A stretch of 64,000 bases of DNA. It comes from an uncultured Rickettsiales bacterium. Its GTDB lineage: Bacteria > Pseudomonadota > Alphaproteobacteria > Rickettsiales > SXRF01. Shown here piece after piece: positions 40,668 to 41,535 of this stretch. Positions within the stretch are counted from its first letter, which is position 1. Every line of letters starts with the position of its first letter. The stretch spans positions 182,194 to 246,193 of the forward strand of contig CAZYBO010000002.1 in the NCBI GenBank assembly GCA_964645205.1, read 5' to 3'. The notes under the pieces were generated by a model, which saw only the letters and a list, made by a program, of their open reading frames with translations, ran no database searches and was not told the origin of the DNA. The position numbers were made by a program, and so were the translations under genes.

Positions 40668-41120
40668 ATGTACAGTTCACTTCACATAGCAAAAAAATAC
40701 CTTGAACTCGGACGCCATGCACAAGATCGGCATCTGACGCCCATGAAGCTTTTGAAGCTGGTGTATATTGCACATGGCTGGATGCTTGGGCTTTATGGTC
40801 GCCCTCTAGTTACAGAAGATATTGAGGCGTGGCAATACGGCCCAGTAATACCAGAGCTATACAGGGAAATGAAAATGTATGGCAATCAACCTGTTTCAGA
40901 CTTAATCAATGTGCCTGATCTTAATTTCCTGCAACAGGAAGAAAGCATAATACAGCAGGTATATCAGAGATACGGTGCATTTACTGGCCCTCAACTATCA
41001 GCAATGACACACGCCAAAGGAACACCTTGGCATCAAATTTGGCATGATAATCCATGGGGGCATATTCCAAATGCATTGATTCAAGCTTATTACCAGCAGC
41101 TTGGTTCTAATGCCGGGTGA
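40668..41120 (+). CDS. Panacea domain (DUF4065, SocA/PanA-like) putative antitoxin
   Basis: [50 protein letters not shown] matches the DUF4065 core as I recall it (KLxKLLYxA....G.PL....xxAWxxGPVxxxxY). Confidence 0.7.
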   Translation: [150 protein letters not shown]

Positions 41121-41535
41121 TGTCGAAAAACCCAACGAAATAAAACAGATACCGGATGAAGGCTTTCGTCAGGAAAAGAAGAAAGCCGCCGGTAATACTG
41201 ACAAGCTTTCCATAGAAGAAGAAGGCGCGATTGCAGACAGAGCGCTTGATCGCATCAAAGATAGTGAGGATGAAAACGTCCTTGCCCTCCACAAAGTCTT
41301 TCGTTGGGGGATCAAATTCCTTTTCGCCATTGCTTGCGTTGCTCTGATATATATTCTGTTCATGATGTGTTACCTGATATGCAGGCACATAGGATATATT
41401 TCTGCAGATCCGGTAAAGCTAGAACAGCTATTAACAAGTGTTTGGCATGTACTTTCTGGCGCGGCAATAATTAGCTTCGTGCAGCTTCTGGGTTGGCTAT
41501 TAAAAGCTCAGCACGATAAATCAAGACGCAAATAA
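41110..41535 (+). CDS. two-TM membrane protein, candidate toxin partner of the Panacea gene
   Basis: The ATG overlaps the last 11 nt of the upstream gene. Acidic N-terminal region, then hydrophobic helices WGIKFLFAIACVALIYILFMMCYLI and VWHVLSGAAIISFVQLLGWLL, then a basic tail. Confidence 0.55.
   Translation: MPGDVEKPNEIKQIPDEGFRQEKKKAAGNTDKLSIEEEGAIADRALDRIKDSEDENVLALHKVFRWGIKFLFAIACVALIYILFMMCYLICRHIGYISADPVKLEQLLTSVWHVLSGAAIISFVQLLGWLLKAQHDKSRRK

Follow-up and report, generated by a model that had tools for sequence, protein, structure and literature searches.

A probable PanA/PanT toxin-antitoxin pair carried by an IS1595-family transposon in an uncultured Rickettsiales bacterium

A stretch of 64,000 nucleotides (nt) from an uncultured Rickettsiales bacterium (GenBank assembly GCA_964645205.1, contig CAZYBO010000002.1, positions 182,194 to 246,193), here called the window, contains a transposon of the IS1595 family with two overlapping genes at its right end. 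The first gene, panA (40668-41120, plus strand), encodes a putative antitoxin of 150 amino acids (aa) that comprises a Panacea domain standing alone. The second gene, panT (41110-41535, plus strand), encodes a 141-aa protein with a charged N-terminus, a hairpin of two transmembrane (TM) helices and a basic tail, which makes it a putative membrane toxin. The pair had been proposed as a PanA/PanT toxin-antitoxin (TA) system in a first-pass annotation of the window.

The panA-panT gene pair

PanA matches the Pfam profile SocA_Panacea (PF13274) over its full length (profile positions 1-113 of 113) at 76.1 bits, where the gathering score is 25.7 (E 5.4e-21), and phrog_1281 in PHROGs with an E value of 4.9e-41. 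The DUF4065/Panacea core recognised in the first-pass annotation, a piece of 43 letters corresponding to residues 23-65, is borne out by the strength of the Pfam match. An AlphaFold2 (AF2) model based on an alignment of 30 homologues has a predicted local distance difference test score (pLDDT) of 95.5 and a predicted template modelling score of 0.91. It contains helices at residues 4-17, 25-43, 62-69, 89-102, 107-114, 120-125 and 135-149 and strands at 53-55 and 58-60. This composition of seven helices and one hairpin of two strands is the one described for Panacea (PMC10440598), a comparison with the description and not with coordinates, and there is no extra N-terminal domain. A fold search of the PDB with the model gave nothing significant, and a sequence search of the PDB gave noise only. 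PanA scores 87.3 bits with the NCBIfam equivalog model for SocA (NF047745), below the cut-off of 190, and is therefore a PanA and not a SocA orthologue. The word-indexed protein search rendered 820 homologues, the nearest non-identical ones with 59-60% identity.

The panT start codon (ATG at 41110) overlaps the panA stop codon (41118-41120) by 11 nt in another frame, and the overlap reads ATGCCGGGTGA. Residues 1-60 of PanT include 16 D/E and 10 K/R and are net acidic, and the tail KAQHDKSRRK has five K/R and one D/E. The Kyte-Doolittle profile has a strong maximum at about residues 66-91 (2.67) and a weaker one at about 113-131 (1.73). The overlap, the acidic N-terminus, the two hydrophobic helices and the basic tail had all been read correctly from the sequence in the first-pass annotation. 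The AF2 model, based on 20 family members, is a helical hairpin with helices at 16-97 and 101-140; the pLDDT is 87-96 from residue 61 onwards and lower in the N-terminal region. According to the positive-inside rule, both termini are probably cytoplasmic (N-in/C-in).

PanT has no family model in Pfam, NCBIfam, PHROGs or PADLOC, in agreement with the earlier remark that its family was not recognised. A match to Pfam Sulf_transp was rejected as noise from TM composition (16.3 bits against a gathering score of 27), and fold searches of BFVD and the PDB with the model gave nothing significant. A word-indexed search of 5.8 billion proteins found the identical sequence only. An exhaustive HMMER scan of 1.84 billion cluster representatives gave 21 non-self matches at E<=1e-3, seven of them at E<=1e-10, and the best of these has an E value of 5.7e-25 and 41% identity. 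Twenty of the matches are 109-198 aa long and the weakest is a protein of 5745 aa. The 20 small relatives align over their full length and have three motifs in common: IPD-x-A-x-x-x-E in the N-terminal region, (Y/F)RWG ahead of the first TM helix, and D-P-x-K-L-E-x-F-L-x-x-x-W-x-V-L-S-G-A leading into the second. panT is thus a genuine, conserved gene. Its cluster is small and seldom sampled, with about 20 representatives, almost all from metagenome assemblies, and no relatives were found in IMG/VR or in the JGI metagenome contigs scanned.

The two nearest relatives of PanT (P0122 and P0123) are encoded directly behind Panacea genes of 149-150 aa with the same overlap of 11 nt. The repetition of this overlap in two independent pairs supports the ATG at 41110 as the start of panT. 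It also suggests that panA and panT are translationally coupled, and by analogy the overlapping start and stop codons would serve this coupling. A type I toxin of the hok/ldr kind, which is a peptide of less than about 60 aa controlled by an antisense RNA, was considered and rejected, as PanT has 141 aa and a protein partner. A scan with Rfam found nothing within the transposon.

The pairing of the two genes was examined in 80 genome loci with PanA relatives at 39-59% identity, mostly from Alphaproteobacteria, with some from Gammaproteobacteria and other groups. In nearly all of these loci an open reading frame (ORF) of 100-150 aa begins within a few bases of the panA stop codon, often with a 4-nt overlap of the ATGA type, and has a strong TM segment at about residues 45-100. 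A profile of the PanT family of the window was iterated over the 4814 ORFs of at least 40 aa from these loci. The converged profile matches in 65 of the 80 loci, always directly downstream of panA and on the same strand, and there was no match in any other position among the 4814 ORFs. Across dozens of genera, PanAs of this subfamily have hence kept a downstream protein of PanT architecture. Since an ORF of the same architecture lies downstream in so many loci, a lack of conservation beside Panacea homologues, which would have counted against the pair, can be set aside.

A few loci deviate from the paired arrangement. An uncultured Bartonella metagenome-assembled genome (MAG) has a solo panA without a downstream partner (L026, 4001-4450), and only short pieces with a match to the PanT profile are found at about 4473-4890 in L032 and, as a second fragment within L012, at 4743-4874. 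Such loci point to antitoxins that are orphans and to toxin genes in decay.

The transposon and related elements

The transposon is 3608 bp long (37994-41601) and has a GC content of 0.468 vs about 0.57 in the flanks. The left inverted repeat (37994-38047, plus strand) and the right inverted repeat (41548-41601, minus strand) are perfect over their outermost 26 nt (37994-38019, CGGTATTATGTAGCAAGCACACCTAG, and 41576-41601) and continue imperfectly to 54 nt (85% over the whole 54 nt). Within the window, the only two copies of the 26-nt repeat are those at the two ends of the transposon, and none is expected by chance. A target-site duplication (TSD) of 8 bp, CTTATTCT, lies directly outside the inverted repeats in two identical copies at 37986-37993 and 41602-41609. 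These boundaries place panA and panT inside the element, and the earlier claim that the pair is carried by a transposon stands on the perfect inverted repeats and the TSD. The window contains a single copy of the transposon. An empty site was not found; contigs with an identical transposase have the same insertion site, and related elements are found at sites that differ between genomes, each flanked by a TSD of its own.

The transposase gene (39332-40294, minus strand) encodes a DDE transposase of the IS1595 family with 320 aa. It matches PF12762 (E 3.3e-44, 151 bits), the zinc ribbon PF12760 (E 1.2e-13, 51 bits) and NF033547 (166 bits, cut-off 75), and it is 72% identical to a 'possible transposase' of Nitrobacter winogradskyi Nb-255. 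The ISfinder name for this subgroup is presumably ISNwi1, a subgroup that includes members with passenger genes.

At the left end orf147 (38046-38489, plus strand) encodes a protein without a match in Pfam, NCBIfam, PHROGs or PADLOC, which belongs to the backbone of this transposon lineage. It has 42.6% identity to a 143-aa protein in the same position in the related element L090 and 32.5% to a protein of L047. Its retention at the end distal to the cargo slot suggests a backbone function. Two further ORFs overlap each other at 38539-38820 (plus strand, 93 aa) and 38693-39037 (minus strand, 114 aa). Their coding status is uncertain, with no family match in the same four collections and no homologues in the sister elements.

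To the right of the transposase gene, the DUF6471 gene (40408-40626, plus strand) encodes 72 aa with a match to PF20075 (E 2.3e-30); a sequence search of the PDB with this protein gave noise only. The intergenic region between the two genes (40295-40407) contains divergent sigma-70-like promoters, a palindrome and a repeated ATATTCGAT-like motif. The promoter-like site on the minus strand (40356-40328) agrees with the sigma-70 consensus in 11 of 12 positions and is directed towards the transposase gene. The one on the plus strand (40350-40378) agrees in 10 of 12 and is directed towards DUF6471. The palindrome of 18 nt is located at 40302-40337. Two copies of a ATATTCGATAC-like motif are present in the region, and the motif is conserved in sister elements (L089 3889-4000, L090 3897-4000, L015 1311-1413 and L056 2867-2953). 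It may be an operator for DUF6471 or for the transposase.

The same termini, with TSDs of 8 bp, were found in nine other loci (L015, L022, L025, L047, L051, L056, L089, L090 and L091). Six of them carry PanAT, namely those from Aliiroseovarius (L056), a Rhodobacteraceae MAG (L015), Azospirillum (L047), a Caulobacteraceae MAG (L051), Halioglobus (L022) and a Poriferihabitaceae MAG (L025). These six contain the transposase, DUF6471 and a PanA-PanT pair of the T12 type (see below) in varying arrangements, and the DUF6471 match is weak in L022 and L025 (E 1.6e-4). The nearest relatives of the transposase (82-87% identity) are found in L089, L090 and the P0144 contigs, where the divergent core of transposase and DUF6471 is kept; L089 and L090, for which DNA was at hand, also keep the termini.

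The element of N. winogradskyi (L091) is 3671 bp long with near-identical termini and an 8-bp TSD. It thus resembles the transposon in the window in its ends, in its TSD and in having about 3.6 kb with genes not involved in transposition. It differs in its content, because the window has PanAT as cargo and DUF6471, where Nitrobacter has a gene for an XRE-type helix-turn-helix protein (HTH_3). As the backbone is shared and the cargo differs, panAT fills a slot for variable cargo in a defined transposon backbone.

The sister transposons with other cargo are located at 2808-6358 in L089, 2754-6047 in L090 and 2857-6527 in L091 (N. winogradskyi, CP000115). Their cargo consists of family-less proteins of 247 aa and 259 aa and a Bro-N protein. 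Such slots could yield cargo modules that are as yet uncharacterised, possibly for defence or of the TA type.

PanA genes are also associated with other lineages of IS1595. A transposase of this family is found within 4 kb in 13 of the 80 PanA loci, and elements with quite different inverted repeats enclose PanA-PanT in L086, L044, L009, L024 and L068. The element in L044 has an 8-bp TSD; in L086, L009, L024 and L068 the inverted repeats are present but a TSD was not found. The element in L086 (1418-3491) is a minimal one of 2.07 kb with perfect 24-nt repeats, which contains only the transposase and a PanA/PanT pair of the same cluster as in the window. It is the most compact unit of an insertion sequence with a TA pair in the set.

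Many PanATs have previously been noted near transposase genes, perhaps as addiction modules, although neither the transposase family nor the bounds of the elements were given (Kurata et al., PMC8832971). A literature search found no description of PanAT as cargo of IS1595 and nothing specific on passenger genes or TA cargo in IS1595. Type II TA systems embedded in transposons are known from the Tn3 family, where they are proposed to serve addiction or coupling to transposition (Lima-Mendez et al. 2020, cited in PMC8832971). The transposon in the window is similar in carrying an embedded candidate TA pair. Unlike the Tn3-family elements, it has a DDE transposase of the IS1595 family, no resolvase or res site, and a different TA family.

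The insertion took place one base after the stop codon of dksA (41603-42019, minus strand), and the right copy of the TSD holds the complement of this stop codon (41603-41605). A terminator-like hairpin at 37938-37965, presumably the original end of dksA, is now 3.6 kb away beyond the transposon. Transcription that reads through from dksA would hence enter panT and panA in the antisense direction. Elsewhere in the window (16277-16752, minus strand) there is a two-piece (permuted) transfer-messenger RNA gene of the alphaproteobacterial kind with the tag peptide ANDNQAFVAANDNTVVEVRAAA, the one direct indication of the class of the host in the sequence.

Relation to described PanTs and alternative explanations

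Three membrane-acting PanTs were validated by Kurata et al. 2022 (PMC8832971). Two of them, T12 from Bartonella and T3 from E. coli, depolarise and permeabilise the membranes of E. coli, and both have a charged N-terminus and a C-terminal TM region. They were described as distinct clusters that are possibly homologous (PMC8832971). The validated T12 pair, which is also NetFlax D11, is from Bartonella apis/choladocola (WP_077993240.1 / WP_077993242.1; PMC8832971, PMC10440598), and the validated T3 pair is from E. coli STEC O31 (WP_000287252.1 / WP_000019185.1; PMC8832971). In the dataset of Kurata et al., T12 entries have the antitoxin before the toxin at distances of -29 to +4, and the protein YP_003344835.1 of Aggregatibacter phage S1249 is a T12 member (PMC8832971). 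The T3 protein used for comparison here was from the annotated E. coli-type PanA/PanT of Escherichia phage PhiR47_1.

The layout of the pair in the window is that of T12 in several respects. The antitoxin is a stand-alone Panacea protein, the gene order is antitoxin followed by toxin with a small overlap or gap, the toxin has about 110-150 aa, is charged in its N-terminal half and has its TM helices in the C-terminal part, and the hosts are Alpha- and Gammaproteobacteria and their mobile elements. Differences from T12 are that PanT of the window falls in a separate cluster with motifs of its own (YRWG, D-P-x-K-L-E-x-F-L and W-x-V-L-S-G-A) and that the second TM helix of this cluster is clearer. 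The resemblance to T3 comprises a PanA with 45% identity, an acidic or charged N-terminus, two C-terminal TM helices and a basic tail, and T3 is borne by a prophage; the T3 toxin is however longer (182 aa) and its genes are separated by a gap of 22 nt instead of an overlap. SocA of the type VI TA system SocA/SocB in Caulobacter has the same Panacea/DUF4065 domain, but the partner in the window is not a DnaN inhibitor like SocB, and action as a ClpXP adaptor is not implied.

The sequence relationships between the toxins are less clear than the layout. A profile of the downstream ORFs from the 80 loci scores 81.5 bits with the T12 member YP_003344835.1, which places most partners of this PanA subfamily in T12. 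The cluster of the window comprises its PanT, P0122-P0141 and the partners in L002, L010 and L058. When iterated profiles were used it appeared to merge with T12, and membership in T12 was considered but rejected, since the controls left the architecture alone as its basis. The T12 profile gives 14 bits with the window PanT and 26-27 bits with the best members of its cluster. Disjoint profiles, hhalign and shuffled controls, which are given below, are the reasons why no T12 membership is claimed. Homology to T3 is not supported by the sequence comparison either, as the expanded profile gives the E. coli T3 PanT a domain score of -0.1 bits and the core profile finds no significant domain in it. 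The antitoxins are graded in a similar way: PanA of the window has 54-59% identity to PanAs paired with its own PanT cluster, 45-50% to PanAs with T12-like or T3 partners, 39-47% to the more distant members of its own group in L010 and L058, and 32% to PanA of the Aggregatibacter phage. Because homology of the toxin to T12 or T3 is not established, the transfer of function depends on architecture, synteny and the related PanA. The earlier description of the toxin as undescribed holds for its sequence cluster, which is new, but not for its kind, because membrane-active T3 and T12 PanTs with the same layout have already been validated (PMC8832971).

Taken together, the pair is likely to be a type II TA module of the PanA/PanT type that is carried in the variable slot of an IS1595-family transposon of the N. 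winogradskyi lineage. Several observations weigh against this interpretation. The profile of the PanT cluster gives the T12 member YP_003344835.1 just 6.8 bits, and hhalign with disjoint alignments of the cluster and T12 gives a probability of 38-52%. Shuffled sequences in register (blocks of 8 residues) reach 12-21 bits with the T12 profile, and reversed ones about 0. The loci with the nearest relatives of the transposase, L089, L090 and the P0144 contigs, are without panAT and have unrelated proteins of 247-259 aa with no known function instead. PADLOC has no model for PanA or PanT. Finally, ten predicted NetFlax TA pairs were not toxic in E. coli (Ernits et al., PMC10440598), and a prediction is therefore no guarantee of activity.

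By analogy with T12/D11 of Bartonella and T3 of E. coli, free PanT would insert into the inner membrane and depolarise or permeabilise it. PanA would bind PanT directly through its Panacea domain and thereby neutralise it, as the stand-alone Panacea of the Bartonella PanA does with its own toxin (Ernits et al. 2023, PMC10440598). That the Panacea domain itself would be responsible is proposed because PanA has no extra N-terminal domain. DUF6471 probably heads an operon that also includes panA and panT, and the three genes might be transcribed together from the promoter-like site at 40350-40378. As selfish cargo, panAT could conceivably penalise loss of the element (addiction) or give the host a defence by abortive infection.

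Of the alternatives, a possible but doubtful one is that panAT is primarily cargo for defence by abortive infection and not an addiction device, with PanA sensing a phage cue and releasing the membrane toxin. Panacea has been proposed as a sensor domain, and PanA systems are networked with phage-defence systems (Ernits et al., PMC10440598). Close relatives of PanA are found beside Abi-like genes in prophages of E. coli, Pseudomonas and Aggregatibacter, and the unrelated cargo of no known function in the same slot of sister transposons is reminiscent of defence islands. On the other hand, PADLOC gave no match, no relative of the PanT cluster was found in IMG/VR, and the papers covered cite no defence phenotype from experiments with the T12 or T3 pairs. 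Defence is also compatible with addiction and both could hold. The sequence alone fits either role, and the earlier statement that the pair stabilises the transposon is regarded as speculation.

A tripartite TA operon, in which DUF6471 would be a DNA-binding autoregulator for a PanA that lacks a domain of this kind, is rather unlikely. The gene is located 41 nt upstream of panA on the same strand behind a promoter-like site. An XRE-type HTH_3 gene in its place in the N. winogradskyi element and the conserved repeated motif in the intergenic region would fit such an operon, but the same two observations are also reasons for regarding DUF6471 as a regulator of the transposon. A third reason is that it accompanies the transposase with or without panAT. 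It follows the transposase and not PanAT, and is always divergent from the transposase gene (L015, L037, L047, L051, L056, L089, L090 and two P0144 contigs). In L015, L047 and L056 it is found beyond the transposase as seen from panAT, and in L051 DUF6471 and panT are convergent. Moreover, it is present in sister elements without PanAT and lacking in most of the 80 PanAT loci, and the nearest group-A pair (L085) has an unrelated upstream gene. DUF6471 is thus probably the small regulator of the transposon itself, outside the TA pair.

It is still less probable that the TM protein is no toxin at all but a harmless membrane protein, for instance an anchor or partner of PanA, and that the pair is not a TA system. 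Arguments for it are that no homology to validated toxins is demonstrated, that some predicted TA pairs lack toxicity in E. coli (PMC10440598) and that orphan PanAs exist (L026, for example). However, the gene order, overlap, size and architecture match those of the validated T12 and T3 pairs. The pair is also a mobile two-gene cassette that has been captured by different IS1595 lineages and by prophages, which is typical of TA and defence systems and difficult to explain for a housekeeping protein.

That the 141-aa ORF is spurious and the real gene an antisense ORF of 93 aa (41107-41388), as called in L087 in place of panA and panT, can be dismissed as highly improbable: each of the six homologous genes with DNA has an uninterrupted sense frame while the longest antisense ORFs differ in frame and length (35-103 codons), the sense protein has 21 homologues with conserved motifs in the full HMMER scan and a confident AF2 model, and another gene caller reported both genes on identical DNA. 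The apparent loss of panAT in L087 was accordingly discarded as a gene-calling difference (L087 vs L088, DNA identical over the 7215 bases compared), and the antisense gene was rejected as spurious in view of the variable antisense ORFs and the conserved sense protein.

Implications for annotation and for transposon biology

The PanT cluster is represented in no curated library and is sometimes missed by gene callers, and a profile would improve annotation. The exact sequences of PanA and PanT are represented in the protein collection by a Logan contig only, whereas those of the transposase, DksA and FlgI of the same genome are also represented by an NCBI contig of 438 kb, so that both genes of the pair may be missing from the annotation of the deposited genome.

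For the PanA/PanT family, the window provides one more pair of the membrane type in a family already known as hyperpromiscuous. It also provides a PanAT cassette in an IS1595-family transposon that is resolved to the base pair, together with sister elements in which nothing but the cargo differs. With one backbone in forms that have panAT and forms that lack it, the published remark on PanATs near transposases becomes testable, with stabilisation and mobile defence as the two possibilities to be compared.

A broader interpretation, which is put forward tentatively, is that the cargo slot of IS1595 elements has been filled repeatedly and independently by PanA with a two-TM PanT, that TA is part of the life cycle of these transposons, and that the PanT of the window represents a third family of membrane PanTs that had not been clustered before. 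PanAT is enclosed by at least five IS1595 lineages whose inverted repeats are unrelated, and the lineage in the window is characterised by CGGTATTATGTAGCAA termini, the core of transposase and DUF6471, and an orf147 of about 145 aa. If this is true, the TA cargo could penalise excision or loss of the transposon, or it could act as a portable defence that pays for its carriage.

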